A DNA stretch of 62,623 nucleotides, the filler included, from an uncultured bacterium (lineage in GTDB: Bacteria > UBA8481), in assembly GCA_964499705.1 (NCBI GenBank). It is 5 parts of 5 records of this genome, joined end to end, with 100 filler letters (N's around TTAATTAATTAA, not from the genome) between each part and the next. Parts side by side here need not be neighbours in the genome. Positions count along the whole stretch, not along the records: positions 61,120 to 62,623 come from CAZCME010000045.1; 4 more parts are not named here. The stretch is one strand, 5' to 3'. The notes under the pieces are model-generated. The model was not told the DNA's origin and did no database searches. It saw only the letters and a program-made list of their open reading frames with translations. The first letter of the stretch is position 1. Every line of letters begins with the position of its first letter. Positions 5,121-62,623 of this stretch are shown piece by piece. Both the position numbers and the translations under genes were made by a program.

Positions 5121-6616
5121 GATCGCGGAATCCTCAACCGAATGTGGATGCAGGGGGGGCACGCACCACGGCGGCTCGAAGACGCGACCGTACGATAAGG
5201 GGTTGCTGCATGTGCCTGGTGTTGATTTGTGTTACTGATGCTCATGCATCCGGTTCCAGCGGAGCCGGAACTACAGGCGCGACATTTCTGGAGATCGGCA
5301 CAGGGGCCCGGGCGGCAGCGATGGGAGAAGCAAACGCGGCGTGGGCCGACGATGTGTACGGCATGCATTTCAATCCTGCAGGCATCGCGGCGGTCCGGCG
5401 TCAGGAAGTCGGCTTTGCGCATAACACGCTCTTCCTGGACCTCGACTACGACTACGTCGGATATTTGCATCCGCTGGGCGACGCCTCGTCGCTCGCGGTC
5501 AGCGGAACATACGTCGACCTGGGAACATTCGAGCGACGCGAGATTGTCGCGGGCGGAGGATCGTCCGCCGTTCTCGGGAGCGCCTCCGCATACGATCTCT
5601 CCTTCTCCGTCACCTACGCGAGGACTCTTTCCGAAATCATCGATCTGGGCGGCAGCGTGAAGGTGATTCACGAGACGCTGGACAATTACAGCGCCAGCGC
5701 CGTCGCGGTAGACCTCGGCGCGAAGTGGCGTCCTCCGATCGAAGGCCTGACGGTCGGCCTCTCCGTGTTGAATCTCGGCTCCTCCCTGAAATTCGTTTCG
5801 GCCGGCGACGAACTGCCGATCACGGTCAGAGCCGGCGCCGGATACAGATCGATTAACGGCCGATGGGGGCTTAATTCGGATATCGTGTATGTCAAGAACC
5901 AGGATATCGAAGGCGGGATCGGCGGCGAATTATGGGTCTGGCCGGATCATGTCGCATTCCGGGCGGGCGCGAATTCGGCGAACGACGCGGGCAGCGGGTT
6001 CACGGTCGGCGCGGGTTTCAAGTGGAATGACATTATTCTGGATTACGCCTATGTGCCTTTCGGAGATCTGGGCGATCAGAATCTCATTTCGCTGTCGTAT
6101 CAATTCGGTTCCACGCATGGCGCGCAGCCGAAGCGAAGCAAGTCGACCGAGCGAACGAATATGGAACACACAAGTGTGGAACGCGGACGCATGGATCAAA
6201 CTGTCGCGGAACCCGCCGGCGCGGGTCACGCAAGGACGGATGATGTACGCCCGGCAGCGAATCGAATGCCGGAGGACGTATTGCCGATGCCGGCGCCGTG
6301 GGGGATCGCCCTTTCGCCCTTCGTCTACCGGTCGGGACCGTCGGAATTCGAGTGGATCGGCGGCGCGACTTCGGAAGTGCTCGCAAAGGGATGGAAGGCG
6401 CGCGGATGGGTGAATCCCGTTGCGAGATCCGCGCGTTTCACCGTGGACGGCGAATGTTGGGTCGTGGGCCGGGCTCTGATCCTGGCCGCGAGGCTGTCGG
6501 GACCGGGATTTCTGTTTGAGGCGAGCGTCGGAGGCGACGTGGGTAAGCCGTTTCTCGCATGGCGCGAGCTTCAGGAAAAGATTAATGTAGCTCTTCATGA
6601 TCGCGGCCTCCCTTGA
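5117..6616 (+). CDS. PorV/PorQ-family outer-membrane beta-barrel with C-terminal extension (true start may be downstream, near 5210)
   Basis: GATFLEIGTGARAAAMGEA...DDVYGMHFNPAGIA motif, alternating beta-strands ending LSYQF, AHA signal-peptidase site, directly after a CTD-bearing protein. Confidence 0.75.
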   Translation: MRSRNPQPNVDAGGARTTAARRRDRTIRGCCMCLVLICVTDAHASGSSGAGTTGATFLEIGTGARAAAMGEANAAWADDVYGMHFNPAGIAAVRRQEVGFAHNTLFLDLDYDYVGYLHPLGDASSLAVSGTYVDLGTFERREIVAGGGSSAVLGSASAYDLSFSVTYARTLSEIIDLGGSVKVIHETLDNYSASAVAVDLGAKWRPPIEGLTVGLSVLNLGSSLKFVSAGDELPITVRAGAGYRSINGRWGLNSDIVYVKNQDIEGGIGGELWVWPDHVAFRAGANSANDAGSGFTVGAGFKWNDIILDYAYVPFGDLGDQNLISLSYQFGSTHGAQPKRSKSTERTNMEHTSVERGRMDQTVAEPAGAGHARTDDVRPAANRMPEDVLPMPAPWGIALSPFVYRSGPSEFEWIGGATSEVLAKGWKARGWVNPVARSARFTVDGECWVVGRALILAARLSGPGFLFEASVGGDVGKPFLAWRELQEKINVALHDRGLP

Positions 6617-6631
6617 ATATCAATCAACAGG

Positions 6632-7429
6632 ATGGACAGGATGAATAGGATGAGTCCTGCATCTGTCATGGTCGTCCGCGAGCTCGTGAAAGAGTATCGG
6701 ATCGACCGTCGAAAATTCGTGAAGGCGGTCGATGGGATTTCGTTCGAGGTGCGAAGAGGGGAGACGCTCGCTCTTGTCGGGCCCAACGGCGCGGGCAAGA
6801 CGACGACGCTGAAGATCATCGCGGGCATACTCGCGCCCACGAGCGGGCGGTCGGAGATGGCCGGGATCGGAACCGAGGCCGGAGCGAAGATCGGCTATCT
6901 GCCGGAGATTCCCGCCCTGTACCCGTTCCTGACGGGCAGGCAGCACCTCGAATATTTCCTGCGTCTGCTGACCCCCGGCCGGAACGGCTCGGCGGGTGCC
7001 GCCGCGGGCTCAGCGGGCGGCAGGATCGAATCTTTCCTCGATCGCGTCGGCTTGGCGGATGCGGCGTGTCGTCGCGCCGACGGCTATTCCCGCGGCATGC
7101 GGGTCCGGCTGGGACTGGCCATTGCTTTGCTCCGAGACCCGGAGCTTCTTCTGTTGGACGAGCCGTTCTCGGGAATCGACCCGCTGGGACGAATACAGAT
7201 CAGGGATCTGCTGAAGGAACTCCGCGCGGAGGGAAAGTCGATTCTTATCTCCACGCATGACCTAGATGAAGCGGGGCGGCTGAGCGATCGCATCGGTCTG
7301 ATGGTCGAGGGAAGGATGCGACGTATCGGTTCACCCACGGACGTGGCGGGTCGCGGTACTTTGGAAGAGGCATTTCTCGCGGAAGCCATGCCGAGTGCGG
7401 CATCGTCCCGACCGACGGCGCGCTCATGA
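6632..7429 (+). CDS. ABC transporter ATP-binding protein (PilH-like)
   Basis: Walker A GPNGAGKT, signature YSRGM, Walker B LLLDEP, H-loop STH. Confidence 0.9.
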   Translation: MDRMNRMSPASVMVVRELVKEYRIDRRKFVKAVDGISFEVRRGETLALVGPNGAGKTTTLKIIAGILAPTSGRSEMAGIGTEAGAKIGYLPEIPALYPFLTGRQHLEYFLRLLTPGRNGSAGAAAGSAGGRIESFLDRVGLADAACRRADGYSRGMRVRLGLAIALLRDPELLLLDEPFSGIDPLGRIQIRDLLKELRAEGKSILISTHDLDEAGRLSDRIGLMVEGRMRRIGSPTDVAGRGTLEEAFLAEAMPSAASSRPTARS

Positions 7430-8942: not shown

Positions 8943-9042
8943 NNNNNNNNNNNNNNNNNNNNNNNNNNNNNNNNNNNNNNNNNNNNTTAATTAATTAANN
9001 NNNNNNNNNNNNNNNNNNNNNNNNNNNNNNNNNNNNNNNNNN
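8943..9042. other. Artificial contig spacer
   Basis: N-run + TTAATTAATTAA (stops in six frames) + N-run. Confidence 0.98.
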
Positions 9043-31321: not shown

Positions 31322-31421
31322 NNNNNNNNNNNNNNNNNNNNNNNNNNNNNNNNNNNNNNNNNNNNTTAATTAATTAANNNNNNNNNNNNNNNNNNNNNNN
31401 NNNNNNNNNNNNNNNNNNNNN
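31322..31421. other. Artificial contig spacer
   Basis: N-run + TTAATTAATTAA + N-run. Confidence 0.98.
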
Positions 31422-43565: not shown

Positions 43566-44440
43566 CAAAGAAACTTCGCTGGGCTGCAGGCCGGTTTGTC
43601 TACCCGAAGGGGAAATCCGATCATCCGGTTCACTACAGCCCCTTCCAGGATTTTCAACTCGACGATGGGCCCGACTTCGCACATCTCTTTCTCGTCCGAG
43701 CCCGCCGATATGGCAATATGTCTCTCTCCGAGGAACCCGTTGCGGAGGCGATCGTTTGCTCGGCCGCGCCCCTGATCGCCGAACTGGCAGGGCATCTGGC
43801 CGGGAATTTTGCCGGGGGAAAGCCCCCCTTGTCCATCATGGAATTTTACCCGGGGGTTGGAGTCACATTCGAGCGGATCAAGCAATCTCTGGAATCCCGC
43901 CCGCCGGATCCGCCGGGGCCGGGGCGCGCTCGCTTCGCTTATTGCGCTTGTGGCGAAGAGTCCTTCAAGCTCAGGTTCGATATTGTCCACGGGGAAGACG
44001 CTTATCCCGTCGAATACATCACGGACGGATTGGGCGACAGCGCCGCGATCCTGAAGCGCGCTGAAAAGTCCGACCTTGTGATTTACAACGCGGATGAGGC
44101 CGTCCATCATCGTTGCGACCAGAATATCGATCTCGAAAAAGTCATCGCCGCGAGCGAGCATTCGATCCTGATTGCTTCGCGCGTGCTTTCTCCGGAGTCC
44201 GATGGCGAATCCGAATCGCTCATGACCGTTCGAGGCCGTACCGTGACGATTCCCGGCTTGAAGCATTTTCTGAATACGTTGAGGATGAACGGTCCTGAAT
44301 GGCGTTACCGGTTTTATCCGGACTTCGACGCGAATCTCTTTCTGCCGGGCAAGGCCTCCTCCACGGGGGTATGTCTGGCGTTCAGATCGTCCCGGGACAT
44401 ATCCGTTCCGGAATACCGGTCGATCTCAAGTGTATCGTGA
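43562..44440 (+). CDS. Hypothetical protein (possibly degenerate methyltransferase fold)
   Basis: GTGA overlaps at both ends; IMEFYPGVG resembles motif I. Confidence 0.5.
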   Translation: MTKKLRWAAGRFVYPKGKSDHPVHYSPFQDFQLDDGPDFAHLFLVRARRYGNMSLSEEPVAEAIVCSAAPLIAELAGHLAGNFAGGKPPLSIMEFYPGVGVTFERIKQSLESRPPDPPGPGRARFAYCACGEESFKLRFDIVHGEDAYPVEYITDGLGDSAAILKRAEKSDLVIYNADEAVHHRCDQNIDLEKVIAASEHSILIASRVLSPESDGESESLMTVRGRTVTIPGLKHFLNTLRMNGPEWRYRFYPDFDANLFLPGKASSTGVCLAFRSSRDISVPEYRSISSVS

Positions 44441-45273: not shown

Positions 45274-45945
45274 TCACTCATCATACCAGGCGACCACCCG
45301 CCCCGGAGCGCCGTCGGCTCCCTCGAACGGCAGCGGGAGCGCCGCCAGGAACACTTCGGATCGCTGCAGGCGATCGAGGCCGCGGAGGTATTCGACGAGG
45401 ATGACCCCTTGTCCCAGCAGGAGCTTATGGCAGGGAGAATCCGGGGACGTCGTGTCGAAACGCGGCGCGTCCGGCGATGGAACGTCCATCCCGATCAGTT
45501 TGACGCCCTCGTCCAGAAGCCATTGGCAGGCCTCCAGTGAGAGCGCCGGCGCCTTGGAATAGAACGTCGGATCGCCGAACCGGGTCGACCAGTCGAAACG
45601 CAACAGAACACGTTCTCGAGGTTTCCCCCCGGGAATCGCCCGCGCCAGTTCTTCGGGCGATACGACCCACAGCTCAGGGGCCGGGATGAGGGGTACCACG
45701 GTCGCGGGGCCGACGAGGATTTCAAGCGGCAATGAGTCGATGCCCGCTCCCCCGGAAATAAAGTGCCGCGGCGCGTCAAAGTGTGTTCCGGTATGTGTCC
45801 CCAGAACAACACGCCGCGTCTCCCGTCCCTCCTGCTCGATCCGACCGAGCTGCGTTATTTCGAACGGAGGATGATTGGGGCTGGGATAGGTCATCATTCC
45901 TCCGCGAAGCGGATGGGAAAGATCGATGATGCGACGGATCGTCAT
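45274..45945 (-). CDS. Cyclase family protein (kynurenine formamidase-like metal hydrolase)
   Basis: DLSHP, HTGTHFDAPRH, GMD, H..LL, E, GADGAPGR. Confidence 0.9.
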   Translation of the reverse strand: MTIRRIIDLSHPLRGGMMTYPSPNHPPFEITQLGRIEQEGRETRRVVLGTHTGTHFDAPRHFISGGAGIDSLPLEILVGPATVVPLIPAPELWVVSPEELARAIPGGKPRERVLLRFDWSTRFGDPTFYSKAPALSLEACQWLLDEGVKLIGMDVPSPDAPRFDTTSPDSPCHKLLLGQGVILVEYLRGLDRLQRSEVFLAALPLPFEGADGAPGRVVAWYDE

Positions 45946-48143
45946 TTCCAGGCGGCCACGAGATCGCTGGCGTTCACGCGGCCATGATCGAAGAGTTCCG
46001 CATGCGCGTGCCCTCTCCGCACCTCCTTGAATTGATGGAATAGAGACTCGAGATCCTTGGCATCGTCGGAGACGAACCAGCGGAGCCCCTGCCTGTTATC
46101 GAGTGACGATGGATCTTCGATCCGATAGCTGCCGTTTCCGATGGGCCTGCAGCGGTGGAATTCCGAGCAATCGCGGGAGACGGTGGAAAGAAGCAGCAGT
46201 CCCTGCGGTCGGAGGCAACGATGAAATTCCGAGAGGACGGCAGAGACGTTTTCACGGGTGGCATTATAATGAATGGAGTTCCAGGAGACAATGAGGTCGA
46301 AGTAGTTGTCCTCGTAAGGGAGACGCGCACCATCGATCAGGCGGAGATCGGCGCGGAGCCCGGCTTTTTCGAGATCCTGGGCGATGTAACCCAGAAGCGT
46401 TTGGGAGATTTCCATCCCGGTGCATGTGAATCCCTTCCTCGAAAGAAAGATAAGATTGTTCCCGCTGCCGCAGCCGTGATCGAGCGCGCGGGCCGGCGTC
46501 GCCGGAATCGGGATGTAGCGACCGGAGATCAGGCGCACAAGATTTTCATCCGGGTATTCGATCGCCTGCGTGCGAATGCGGCTGGCGGCATCCCAGATCT
46601 CGACGTTCTGAGCCAGCGGAGCCTGGAATGCGGATGGGAGATGCAGTTTTTCGCGGACGAGCTCGCGCACGCGGTCTTTCAGGATCTTTCCGGCGGGATT
46701 TCTCGGAAACACATCGATTTCCAGGAATCTTGATGGCCTCTGAAACGGGCTTAATTGCTCGCGACAGAGCGCTTCCAGCTCGTGCTGCACGAGTATCCAT
46801 TCCGCGCCGGACTTCAATCGGACAACCGCGATGACCTCCTCTCCGACGACATCGTGCGGCTGACCGACGACGGAAGCCTCCGCCACGTGCTGGGATCCAA
46901 GCAGCACTTCCTCCACGGCGGCCGGGCTGATATTGAAACCTCCGCGGATGATCAGATCCTTTTTCCTTCCGACGAGAAAGATATTTCCTTCCGCGTCCGT
47001 GTGGCCGATGTCGCCCGTCGCGAGGAAACCATCCTGCAGGGGAGGGGAATCGATCGTTCCCGTTTCGGAGAGATATCCCTCCATGATATACGAGGTCTTC
47101 ACCAGGACTTCGCCGTCCTTAGGATCGATCCGGATCTCCACACCATGAAGCGGTTGACCGGCGCATCCGTCGAGGACGGGACGCGAAGAGGCGTTGGTTG
47201 CGAGCAGAAATGTTTCCGAAAGGCCGTAGCTCTCGTGAATCCGGATGCCGTATTTCTTCTCGAAATTGTGACGAAGCTGAGGGGCAAGAGGCGCGGTGCC
47301 GCACAGCGCCAGAAGGACGTTCTGACGGCAGTAGTGCGCTCCTGTTTCGCCCCGGTCCAGTTCCATCAGTATGGAGAGAATGGTGGGAACGAACCAGAAA
47401 GTGTTGACGCCCTCCGCCATGGGCGTGCTCCAGAAATCAATGGCCTGGCGTCCACTGAAGGGTTGCGCGATGACAATGCTCGCGCCCGATAGGTACGGGA
47501 TGAGAAAAAGATTCAACGTTCCCGGTATGGACCCCATGGCGAGATTGCCGTAAAAGCGGTGTTCCGGGCGTATTCCCAGATCGTGCGCGAAAGCCTTGCC
47601 GTTTCCGATCAGGGAGGCCAGGCGATGCACGACACCCTTGGGCCGGGCTGTGGTGCCGGATGTGTAGAAGATGGCCGCGATTTCATGGCCCTCCAATGAG
47701 CGCGCCTCGCCTGCCGAACGCGGGTTTGCTGCGACCGCATCCAGCCATGCCTTGCCGGCCAGGATCCGCCGATCCGCGGGTATGTCGAGAGGAAGCGCCT
47801 GGATACGCCCTGCGAACTGTGACGAATGAAAGAGGGCGCGCGCGCCGGATTGTCGCGCCAGGTAGATGATGTCCCGATCGCTCAGGAGCGGATGGATCGG
47901 CACGAAGGTGATTCCGGCGCGCATGCATCCCATGAAGAGAGCGGCGCATTCGATGCTGTTTTCGAGCAGGAGCGCGACTCGATCTCCCCGAGCCAGGTTT
48001 CGGCGAATGAGATCGGAGGCGACCTCCTGCACGAGCCGGTTGAATTCCCGATACGAGATGTGTCGCCCTGTCGAAGGCTCCGACAGGAGCATCGCGTCTC
48101 CGTGCCGCTCGGTGGCTTCAGCCATCACCTCCTGCAGATTCAC
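45942..48143 (-). CDS. Adenylate-forming acyl ligase fused to C-terminal SAM methyltransferase
   Basis: YTSGTTARPKG, YGLSE, TGDIG, GRKKD, GKI; then YPDE, LDHGCGSGNN, LRPQG. Confidence 0.88.
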   Translation of the reverse strand: MNLQEVMAEATERHGDAMLLSEPSTGRHISYREFNRLVQEVASDLIRRNLARGDRVALLLENSIECAALFMGCMRAGITFVPIHPLLSDRDIIYLARQSGARALFHSSQFAGRIQALPLDIPADRRILAGKAWLDAVAANPRSAGEARSLEGHEIAAIFYTSGTTARPKGVVHRLASLIGNGKAFAHDLGIRPEHRFYGNLAMGSIPGTLNLFLIPYLSGASIVIAQPFSGRQAIDFWSTPMAEGVNTFWFVPTILSILMELDRGETGAHYCRQNVLLALCGTAPLAPQLRHNFEKKYGIRIHESYGLSETFLLATNASSRPVLDGCAGQPLHGVEIRIDPKDGEVLVKTSYIMEGYLSETGTIDSPPLQDGFLATGDIGHTDAEGNIFLVGRKKDLIIRGGFNISPAAVEEVLLGSQHVAEASVVGQPHDVVGEEVIAVVRLKSGAEWILVQHELEALCREQLSPFQRPSRFLEIDVFPRNPAGKILKDRVRELVREKLHLPSAFQAPLAQNVEIWDAASRIRTQAIEYPDENLVRLISGRYIPIPATPARALDHGCGSGNNLIFLSRKGFTCTGMEISQTLLGYIAQDLEKAGLRADLRLIDGARLPYEDNYFDLIVSWNSIHYNATRENVSAVLSEFHRCLRPQGLLLLSTVSRDCSEFHRCRPIGNGSYRIEDPSSLDNRQGLRWFVSDDAKDLESLFHQFKEVRRGHAHAELFDHGRVNASDLVAAWK

Positions 48144-59396: not shown

Positions 59397-59496
59397 NNNN
59401 NNNNNNNNNNNNNNNNNNNNNNNNNNNNNNNNNNNNNNNNTTAATTAATTAANNNNNNNNNNNNNNNNNNNNNNNNNNNNNNNNNNNNNNNNNNNN
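59397..59496. other. Artificial contig spacer
   Basis: N-run + TTAATTAATTAA + N-run. Confidence 0.98.
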
Positions 59497-61019: not shown

Positions 61020-61119
61020 NNNNNNNNNNNNNNNNNNNNNNNNNNNNNNNNNNNNNNNNNNNNTTAATTAATTAANNNNNNNNNNNNNNNNNNNNNNNNN
61101 NNNNNNNNNNNNNNNNNNN
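61020..61119. other. Artificial contig spacer
   Basis: N-run + TTAATTAATTAA + N-run. Confidence 0.98.
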
Positions 61120-61404
61120 GTGAGTGGCGGCCACTTCGGAGACGGTGATTACTCGCAGGAAGAATTGGTCGCGGAGTTCGCGTCTGCTTTCCTTTGTACC
61201 CACGTCGGCATAGAGAACGAGATCGAGCAGAGCGCGGCGTATCTTCAAGGCTGGCTCGCGGTGCTTCGTGACGACAAGAAGATGCTCGTCCAGGCCGCTG
61301 GTCTCGCGCAACGGGCGGCGGACTATGTTCTGAATATTCGATTCGACGAGGCGGAACACAGCGAGCCTATCGCGCCCGCTGAGGATCTCGCGATCGCGGC
61401 GTGA
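61120..61404 (+). CDS. ardC: ArdC-like antirestriction protein, C-terminal zincin-like fragment
   Basis: FGDGDYSQEELVAEFASAFLC...SAAYLQGWL..L...AAGLAQRAADYVL. Confidence 0.85.
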   Translation: MSGGHFGDGDYSQEELVAEFASAFLCTHVGIENEIEQSAAYLQGWLAVLRDDKKMLVQAAGLAQRAADYVLNIRFDEAEHSEPIAPAEDLAIAA

Positions 61405-61449
61405 TCATTGCGACTTCGTTCTGCGTCGTTGAAATCCGTTTTGTGAGTA

Positions 61450-61911
61450 GAGTTCCACCCTGCCGCCGCTTACCGGCGGTGCAAGGGCCGCGCCGGCGCT
61501 GGGGTGTGGCGGAGCAATGGTCGCGCCCGCCCCGCCTGAACTCGTCGATGCTCATCGAAGAGTGATCGGTTGATTCCTTCTTCAAGGTAGGCGGGGCGGT
61601 CACGCCCATTGCAGACGCACTCCGGTCGCTCCCTTCCGCTGCCGGTGTCCAAAAATCGGAGCATCCTGTCCTGATTCTGGACACAAAAAGACGTGTCCAG
61701 AATCAGGACAGGACTCCTCGTCGCACTCGGCGTGCTCGCCCTTGCCGCTGCGCGGCAGCGGGCTCCGCTCGCCGGCGCTCCTCGTCGCCCTTCGGGTGTC
61801 CATTTTTGGATCACCGTCCGCTTCAGTCCGCGCCCTGCGTGCTTCCGCCCCACCCGATCGCCGTCACGTCCCTTGCACCTACCTCCAGTAAGCGGCGGCA
61901 GGGTGGAACTC
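61450..61911. repeat. Large nested inverted-repeat element (structured ssDNA or RNA)
   Basis: Perfect 24-bp IR 61450-61473/61888-61911, perfect 21-bp IR 61664-61684/61693-61713, plus several inner helices. Confidence 0.9.
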
Positions 61912-61957
61912 CCCAACAGGGACAGCCCAAATCAAACCACCGCAACGGAGGCAACAA

Positions 61958-62623
61958 ATGAATATCGCTGTTATCGGCAGCAGGGACTTTCCTCAACTCA
62001 ACTACGTCGCGGCATACGTCGCCGGACTTTCACCGGAAACGGTCATCGTCTCCGGTGGCGCGCGCGGCGTCGATCGGACAGCAGCGGCAACGGCACGCGC
62101 AACCGGCAAGCAGGTCCGTGAATTTCTTCCGAATTGGGATCGGGACGGAAAATCCGCCGGCTTCAAACGGAATGCGGAAATCGTCGCCGCGGCTGATCGG
62201 CTCGTTGCTTTCTGGGACGGCAAGTCACGCGGCACGGCGGATACCATCGAAAAAGCCCGACAGGCGGAACTTACCATCACGGTCATCAATCCCGACGGCT
62301 CGCGATACGAACCCGAACCCATCGACGCGGATTCATTCGACGACAGCGACCCGCAGGACGGCGCGACGCGGGAAGAATACGAAGACGCCAAGGCGCGCGA
62401 TGAAGTCACTGATTTCACTTTTCCGAAATCAGACCACGAAGGCAGACCCATGGTGAAGCTACTTACGACGGCCCTCCGGTGGATCTGCGCCGCGAAGGCG
62501 AAGACACGCACAACCAAGGACGGCCGCGCGCTCGAATATTTCACGCAAGCCTGTTTCACCGCCCGGGGAAATCGCCTCATTCTCACCTACGACGCCGGCA
62601 CGCACCCGATGAAGGAAGGCGCC
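61958..62623 (+). CDS. SLOG-family (YspA/DUF2493-like) protein with C-terminal extension, 3' truncated (absent from ORF track)
   Basis: GGAGG SD; manual translation MNIAVIGSRDF...IVSGGARGVD...WDRDGKSAGFKRNAEIV...AFWDGKSRGT; open to the window end. Confidence 0.85.
   Translation, partial: MNIAVIGSRDFPQLNYVAAYVAGLSPETVIVSGGARGVDRTAAATARATGKQVREFLPNWDRDGKSAGFKRNAEIVAAADRLVAFWDGKSRGTADTIEKARQAELTITVINPDGSRYEPEPIDADSFDDSDPQDGATREEYEDAKARDEVTDFTFPKSDHEGRPMVKLLTTALRWICAAKAKTRTTKDGRALEYFTQACFTARGNRLILTYDAGTHPMKEGA

Follow-up and report, generated by a model that had tools for sequence, protein, structure and literature searches.

A single-copy, multi-branched fold-back element between an ArdC-like gene and a SLOG gene, tentatively read as a control element active in single-stranded DNA

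The Frpo and ssi promoters, found in the leading regions of IncF and IncI plasmids, are fold-backs of the transferred strand that rebuild -35 and -10 boxes (PMC11541004, PMC12672017). According to the parts of PMC11541004 that were consulted, Frpo of the F plasmid is located in the gap upstream of ssb and the regulatory regions searched by Samuel et al. were 50-350 bp long, and, according to the consulted parts of PMC12672017, mining without homology gave three classes of single-stranded DNA (ssDNA) promoter, each of them a large stem-loop. The EGeRS1 regions of the pLS20 family of Bacillus plasmids span 420-750 bp, contain many inverted repeats, adopt a multi-branched fold and adjoin the RBS (ribosome-binding site) of ardC and other establishment genes; in the consulted sections of the source they are described as having no sigma-A promoter and as working by a mechanism that is not known (PMC8708921). 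Here we describe a fold-back element of 462 nt (61450-61911) in a 62.6-kb stretch of DNA, hereafter the window, that joins five contigs from an uncultured bacterium (UBA8481; assembly GCA_964499705.1). The element is a single-copy orphan. By analogy it is best filed as akin to the Frpo/ssi and EGeRS1 control regions and homologous to neither, and we tentatively read it as a control element of a mobile genetic element, a promoter and/or primer site that would be active as ssDNA.

The element consists of a closing rod and two main branches, with about 180 pairs and six tip hairpins in total. The rod opens with a perfect 24-bp closing stem, in which the 5' arm (61450-61473) pairs with the 3' arm (61888-61911); with G-T pairs on the - strand this stem reaches 28 bp (61449-61476/61885-61912), and taken as terminal inverted repeats the arms are perfect over 24 bp and 94% matched over 31 nt. 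The stem is continued by an imperfect rod of 36-nt arms (61478-61513 with 61844-61879; 83% complementary), which is built of 10-, 5-, 5- and 6-bp helices and begins with GGTGCAAGGG/CCCTTGCACC (61478-61487/61870-61879). Branch A (61514-61612) has 24-nt arms that are 88% complementary, carries the stems GCAATGG/CCATTGC and CCGCCCCGCCT/AGGCGGGGCGG and ends in three small tip hairpins. Branch B (approximately 61615-61840) is a bulged helix, including TCCAAAAAT/ATTTTTGGA (61648-61656/61802-61810), around three further hairpins: a perfect 21-bp hairpin with an 8-nt loop (61664-61713; arms 61664-61684 and 61693-61713), a hairpin at 61722-61777 with a TGCCGC/GCGGCA tip (61743-61757), and a small 5-bp hairpin followed by TCCATTTTTGG, which is weakly terminator-like on the + strand (61786-61810). 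All helices named in the preliminary description of this locus were recovered at their coordinates by the repeat search and the helix list, and the ORF (open reading frame) list bears out its statement that there is no credible ORF. Because the closing stem joins arms 414 nt apart, with all 462 nt nested inside, the fold is possible in a single strand only, and the molecule concerned is therefore ssDNA or RNA, barring a role of the arms as recombination sites, for which no support was found. Inspection of the hairpin loops by eye for motifs that might tell RNA from DNA gave no clear signal.

Folding as both DNA and RNA had been proposed in the preliminary description as a check, and we folded the span 61440-61920 on both strands with both parameter sets, each against 100 dinucleotide shuffles. 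The fold lies far beyond the shuffles in all four cases (z -14 to -17, with 0/100 shuffles as good in any of them). As RNA, the + strand reaches -287.5 kcal/mol (z -17.4), with a centroid identical to the minimum free energy (MFE) structure, and the - strand -308.2 kcal/mol (z -14.2); as DNA, the - strand reaches -184.3 kcal/mol (z -16.3) and the + strand -157.5 kcal/mol (z -13.9). The - strand, which is the template strand of the flanking genes, thus folds better than the coding strand both as DNA and as RNA. Only 5 of 180 pairs in the + strand RNA fold and 8 of 181 in the - strand RNA fold are G-U, and pairing that had been called mostly strict Watson-Crick is indeed about 97% so.

In the sequence collections searched, no relative or further copy of the element came to light. 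Sensitive blastn of the entire gap between the flanking genes (61405-61957) gave no match at E 1e-3 among 72,556 plasmid records, the F plasmid (NC_002483.1) included, and no match to the element among 50,697 phage records. A 22-nt closing-arm pattern had 0 exact matches in GTDB species genomes, IMG/VR and JGI metagenome contigs, and patterns of 20-22 nt from the hairpin arm and branch A had 0 exact matches in IMG/VR. In the 62.6-kb window itself, a search for the closing arm with up to 3 mismatches matched the two arms alone, and the element has 40 11-mers in common with the other 61 kb against a control mean of 46.5; there is no enrichment, and a REP-like family common to the rest of the bin is ruled out by these counts. 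Homologues upstream of SLOG genes, which the preliminary description had proposed to collect, did not materialize: blastn of the element against 240 loci with SLOG relatives showed no resemblance, nor did nhmmer on the first 160 of them.

The sequence has been assembled more than once. When contigs of four public metagenome runs were aligned to the window at 80% likeness, a single 1876-nt contig of one run (X1) covered all of 61120-62623 with 4 differences, two contigs from a second study (X2) covered 61120-61600 and 61695-62449, the assembly break between them (61600-61695) surrounding the perfect 21-bp palindrome, and a 293-nt contig from a third study (X5) corresponded to 61559-61851 with 0 differences. 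The window may itself derive from one of these runs, and the near-identical sequence thus comes from two to three studies. Flanks and orientation agree across the contigs, the orientation being the same in all three that bear on it (window, X1 and X2), and the element sequence is no assembly artefact. Among the differences listed, variant density resembles that of the flanking genes (2 in 462 nt vs 3 in about 950 nt). One of these variants, 61505 T>C, occurs in both X1 and X2 and lies in the 5' arm of the rod, where it turns a T-A pair into C.A on the + strand and G.T on the - strand; it points weakly toward a fold of the - strand.

The element lies on the final contig of the window (61120-62623; 1504 nt, GC 0.616), the place of which in the metagenome bin is putative, as a contig of this length may be mis-binned. 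Directly 5' of the element is the 3' end of an ArdC-like gene on the + strand (61120-61404; 94 codons and the stop, truncated by the contig start), which matches the zincin-like C-terminal domain PF18818, MPTase-PolyVal (E 8.8e-19), and the 'anti-restriction protein' profile PHROG 7245 (E 8.4e-20; aligned to positions 235-309 of its 324). From the ardC stop codon to the next start codon there are 553 nt (61405-61957), most of which the element fills. It is followed by an unstructured, C/A-rich leader and a strong RBS, GGAGG (61947-61951, + strand), 35 nt 3' of the closing stem and 6 nt 5' of the ATG of a SLOG/YAcAr gene (DUF2493-type, DprA-like; 61958-62623) that lies on the same strand as the ArdC-like gene and is open at the contig end. 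The SLOG/YAcAr domain (PF10686, E 4.8e-08) makes up the first approximately 115 residues of this ORF, whose closest relatives show 61% identity over 50% of the query; the remainder (at least 107 residues, 62300-62623) has no relatives and no Pfam match, and could form a second domain in a protein of polyvalent type. The two domain matches substantiate the earlier assignment of ardC and a SLOG gene as the flanking genes, and the setting fits a control element acting in ssDNA.

The element resembles EGeRS1 in several respects. Both extend over several hundred bases (420-750 bp in EGeRS1, and 462 nt within the 553-nt gap here), consist of nested inverted repeats with a very stable multi-branched fold and a long closing helix, lie in an ardC neighbourhood just 5' of the RBS of an establishment gene (presumed, in the case of the SLOG gene), have no recognisable housekeeping promoter and fold better on the template than on the sense strand. 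The ardC-upstream region of pLS20 that holds EGeRS1-B (45765-46400) folds at -237.6 kcal/mol (z -8.0) into a structure whose long closing helix ends at the RBS. In this region the template strand reaches -166.5 kcal/mol as DNA against -136.2 for the coding strand, and -281.6 against -237.6 as RNA, with 18 vs 8 G-U pairs. The consulted part of PMC8708921 contains no statement of such a template-strand bias of EGeRS1. There are also differences: there is no sequence similarity (best blastn E 3.4 against the first 50 kb of pLS20, with copies at 44008, 45760 and 48993); each plasmid carries four to five copies of EGeRS1, whereas one element is seen here, on a 1.5-kb contig, and contigs of the four metagenome runs hold no second copy; EGeRS1 stands out in composition (GC 0.507 vs 0.378 for the plasmid), whereas the contrast here is slight (0.646 for the 500 nt upstream of SLOG vs 0.616 for the contig); the closing helix of EGeRS1 abuts the RBS, whereas that of the element stops 35 nt short; and the host phyla differ.

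Like the Frpo/ssi promoters, the element folds back in the template strand and is situated upstream of early genes for anti-defence or establishment. It also passes the published screen by which ssDNA promoters were mined without homology, in which, according to the consulted part of the source, 300-nt windows are folded with DNA parameters and those below -75 kcal/mol are retained (PMC12672017). Windows over 61340-61959 fall below this threshold, with a minimum of -102.3 kcal/mol on the - strand, and of 99 background windows taken elsewhere in the stretch just 1 does so. In the F-plasmid gap upstream of ssb (6165-6643), the best 300-nt window folds at -82.6 kcal/mol on the ssb-template strand, which from the position of oriT (the origin of transfer) is probably the transferred strand, vs -75.4 on the other. 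These values hint that a folding bias toward the template strand is common to the element, EGeRS1-B of pLS20 and the F gap. The element differs from Frpo/ssi in that sensitive blastn finds no plasmid similarity in PLSDB; rebuilt -35 and -10 boxes were looked for and not found, a negative of little weight. A further comparison is offered by the single-strand origins (sso) found on rolling-circle plasmids and ICEBs1, which are typically 150-300 nt long with conserved motifs, and in which strand-specific structured non-coding DNA recruits RNA polymerase to make a primer on ssDNA. The element is likewise highly structured non-coding DNA and may act in a similar strand-specific way, but its contig shows no gene for Rep, a relaxase or a partition protein in the ORF list and Pfam matches.

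There is a slight lean toward ssDNA as the active form, because wobble pairs are nearly absent, stability with DNA parameters is extreme and the template-strand bias is common with Frpo and EGeRS1. The DNA of the mobile element would be single-stranded after entry into the cell or during rolling-circle-type replication, and the template (-) strand, which we infer to be the acting one, would then snap into the stable branched fold-back. This structure might be where host RNA polymerase or primase lands, and RNA started at the fold could express the SLOG/DprA-like gene early, prime the complementary strand, or do both. In duplex DNA the long-range stems could no longer form, and the site would fall silent. 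The preliminary description had suggested a large ssDNA promoter or priming origin, or else a non-coding RNA. What stands of this is a real, non-chance fold with Watson-Crick pairing, no ORF and no Rfam family, which passes the ssDNA-promoter screen; a match to the known promoters does not stand in full, as no boxes are found and the element is bigger and more branched than Frpo.

We also asked what lies upstream of relatives of the SLOG gene. For the 240 loci (80 each from metagenomes, genomes and IMG/VR), the 500 nt 5' of each gene were folded and the energy was regressed on GC. The element's own upstream 500 nt lie at -4.7 standard deviations (sd), and among 223 scorable loci just two lie beyond -3 sd, L003 at -4.8 sd and L137 at -3.7 sd, with 5 below -2 sd; of 375 control windows from the same loci, 0 fall below -3 sd and 1 below -2 sd. 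With only 2 of 223 loci below -3 sd, a large fold-back as a general feature upstream of SLOG genes is rejected, and a SLOG-specific link is weak because the upstream windows are more often non-coding than the controls. Around ArdC genes, no 500-nt window falls below -2.5 sd in two annotated 10-kb loci (L241 and L242), nor in the roughly 1.5 kb around the ArdC match in four viral loci (L244-L247). A large fold-back as a general feature of ArdC neighbourhoods was likewise rejected, nothing comparable being present in the six neighbourhoods scanned.

The regions upstream of SLOG in L003 and L137, neither of which can be aligned with the element, have features of their own. In L003, a metagenome contig, five same-strand hairpins occur within 320 nt (2379-2699; 0.04 expected), having the loop GGCRTCSTGCC in common on differing G+C-rich stems, and two of the five form an inverted pair starting with GTAG that is REP/REPIN-like. 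They are followed by a perfect 28-bp hairpin inside 10- and 14-bp helices (2725-2971; z of the region -10.9) and by a 19-bp hairpin with a T-rich tail directly 5' of the SLOG RBS. In L137, from Clostridia, a long closing stem surrounds hairpins with differing stems (2545-2890; z of the region -11.4) that are separated by AGTRATATT, present in four direct copies and one inverted copy with a 24-25-nt period, and an ordinary promoter-like TTGCAT-17-TATACT stands after the hairpins and before SLOG. Two other Clostridia SLOG loci, L090 (461-670) and L046 (1280-1385), contain related perfect palindromes of 13-21 bp, of the TTTTTCGAG..CTCGAGCTC type, at a distance of several hundred bases 5' of SLOG. 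Finally, a contig from the same groundwater sample (X2, record 11) carries a diverged relative of the SLOG gene itself (61958-62253; 46 differences and 4 gaps over 296 aligned bases), the upstream DNA of which cannot be aligned with the element except for 22 nt at 61514-61535.

As to the mobile element that carries the locus, the ArdC-type C-terminal domain is found in 1161 plasmid records, 633 of them typed conjugative, vs 42 phage records, and the best match of the ArdC-like sequence, at 58% identity, is in a spring-water phage genome. The five contigs of the window are separated by N44-TTAATTAATTAA-N44 linkers with stops in all six frames (8943-9042, 31322-31421, 59397-59496 and 61020-61119), and neighbouring pieces have no physical linkage. 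On the preceding 1523-nt contig (59497-61019) lie a gene for an IS21-type IstB (PF01695, E 2e-45) and, adjoining it, an ORF with no Pfam match; this contig has no words in common with the element.

Several observations weigh against a control element active in ssDNA. The SLOG family occurs in 208 phage vs 10 plasmid records, all 10 of these plasmids being typed non-mobilizable, and 570 of 589 candidate stretches in IMG/VR matched it; phage DNA enters the cell as a duplex. The carrier may thus be a phage or a conjugative element, a leading region being only one possible setting, and no relaxase, oriT or type IV secretion system gene is visible on the 1.5-kb contig. In none of the 240 SLOG loci does an ArdC C-terminus lie within 3 kb of SLOG. 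The strand bias is small when judged by G-T pairs in the DNA folds (5 vs 2), L003 and L137 have, unlike the window, more G-U pairs on the sense than on the antisense strand (18 vs 8 and 14 vs 4, respectively), and the variant 61548 A>T disrupts a pair at a tip in either strand. The element also exceeds the proven ssDNA promoters in size and branching: Frpo/ssi are single bulged hairpins in regions of 50-350 bp, and the element is a branched structure of about 460 nt. For EGeRS1, the authors of the pLS20 work considered, in the consulted part of their paper, a role as ssDNA promoter 'highly unlikely', the transferred strand being the non-template strand (PMC8708921). Lastly, a scan for sigma-70-type -35/-10 pairs, a consensus that may not be that of the host, found 0 on either strand, and none was seen by eye in the stems, in line with the earlier remark that clear boxes could not be found. 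The missing boxes carry little weight, however, because the same scan finds 0 sites in the F-plasmid gap that is said to hold Frpo.

A role at the level of RNA is nearly as likely as one in ssDNA, though by itself it too is a doubtful proposition. The element would then be a structured intergenic or 5'-leader RNA, transcribed together with ardC or from a weak upstream promoter, and could work as a transcriptional insulator before SLOG or as a site cut by a double-strand-specific RNase, which would uncouple and stabilise the SLOG message. Its position between same-strand genes is consistent with this, as are the end of the structure 35 nt before the RBS, the unstructured C/A-rich leader, the + strand RNA fold (z -17.4) with its centroid identical to the MFE structure, and the weak terminator-like hairpin and T-run on the + strand inside the element. 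According to the consulted part of the pLS20 study, EGeRS1-B stops read-through from an upstream promoter in its native orientation only (PMC8708921), and the structured regions upstream of SLOG in L003 and L137, where 9-12% of sense-strand pairs are G-U, and the T-tailed 19-bp hairpin directly before the RBS in L003 would also suit such a role. On the other hand, the sense strand of the element has only 5 G-U pairs in 180, the antisense strand folds 21 kcal/mol better, perfect helices of 21 and 24 bp are unusual in stable RNA elements, and 61505 T>C disrupts a sense-strand pair. The Rfam search, one of the checks put forward in the preliminary description, yielded no family at its gathering score that could explain the element; the best hits are microRNA (miRNA) hairpin models far under threshold, the top one, on the 21-bp hairpin, scoring 30.2 bits vs 70.

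It is unlikely that the element works instead as a protein-binding platform in duplex DNA, that is, as an origin of replication or of transfer or as an operator array, in which the palindromes and a short repeat are protein sites and local cruciforms possibly form. The repeat is GTGTCCA, which occurs four times in 160 nt (61645-61802), in three direct copies (61645, 61693 and 61796, + strand) and one inverted copy (61678-61684, - strand); these are 4 of the window's 14 copies, with 3.9 expected over the entire 62.6 kb, and from this clustering GTGTCCA is a possible candidate for a protein-binding motif. The perfect 21-bp palindrome with its 8-nt spacer could be extruded as a cruciform, and the iteron-like AGTRATATT repeats of L137 with their 24-25-nt period would fit such a platform. 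Nevertheless, two of the four GTGTCCA copies are merely the two arms of that one palindrome, the arms of the outer stems stand 330-414 nt apart and would be meaningless in a duplex, there is no AT-rich unwinding region at a GC of about 0.65, and the contig shows none of the replication, transfer or partition genes (Rep, relaxase) that might accompany an origin.

Slightly less probable still is a miniature inverted-repeat transposable element (MITE) or an invertible DNA switch (inverton) bounded by the terminal inverted repeats. In favour of mobility or inversion are repeats that are perfect over 24 bp and 94% matched over 31 nt, a size of a few hundred bp, upstream of a gene, that would suit large MITEs and invertons, and a short contig that breaks in several assemblies. 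However, the flanks (..GTGAGTA and CCCAACA..) contain no direct repeat, and a multi-copy MITE with target duplications, which had been raised in the preliminary description, was looked for and neither a second copy nor a duplication came to light. The databases hold no exact match to the 22-nt arm pattern, the rest of the window shows neither a further arm nor enriched 11-mers, and the repeat arms are found in one contig lineage only in the four metagenome runs, where contigs can conceal rare forms. The orientation is constant in 3 of 3 assemblies, with no strand-change joint listed, no promoter-like site lies inside on either strand, and nested inner palindromes would be purposeless in a MITE and an inverton alike; a MITE is unlikely.

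Least probable of all is that the element has no function and was left behind by template-switch (quasi-palindrome) mutation where a mobile element that evolves fast has a long non-coding gap. In favour of this, hairpin-templated correction yields perfect arms, the element is an orphan with no detectable relatives, and the diverged SLOG relative in X2 has other DNA upstream bar 22 nt. Against it, at least seven independent helices in one compact fold (z about -16) would be hard to obtain without selection, and the sequence is near-identical over two to three studies with a variant density, among the differences listed, as low as in the flanking genes.

A bolder form of the ssDNA control reading, to which we give little credence at present, is that the element represents an unusually large, previously undescribed class of single-strand-active element in the mobile DNA of an uncultured groundwater lineage, in which the folded template would be both a start for RNA and a loading platform for ssDNA-handling proteins that the mobile element itself encodes, ArdC upstream and the DprA-like SLOG protein downstream. 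If this were true, the hairpin-dense DNA before the SLOG genes of L003 and L137 would be a functional counterpart and no coincidence.

What we report is a single orphan locus on a short contig, and its value is that of a lead, which would gain greatly in interest with evidence of ssDNA-dependent activity or of covariation. Promoters active in ssDNA and EGeRS1 regions give incoming plasmids a route to express anti-defence genes before the host reacts, and work on such elements has been confined to a few Enterobacterial and Bacillus plasmids. The element described here comes from an uncultured lineage and is much more stable and regular than the Frpo and EGeRS1 examples, which recommends it as a clean substrate for studying what is recruited by folds of this kind. 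Should the template-strand bias prove general, it could be used to find elements of this kind without homology.

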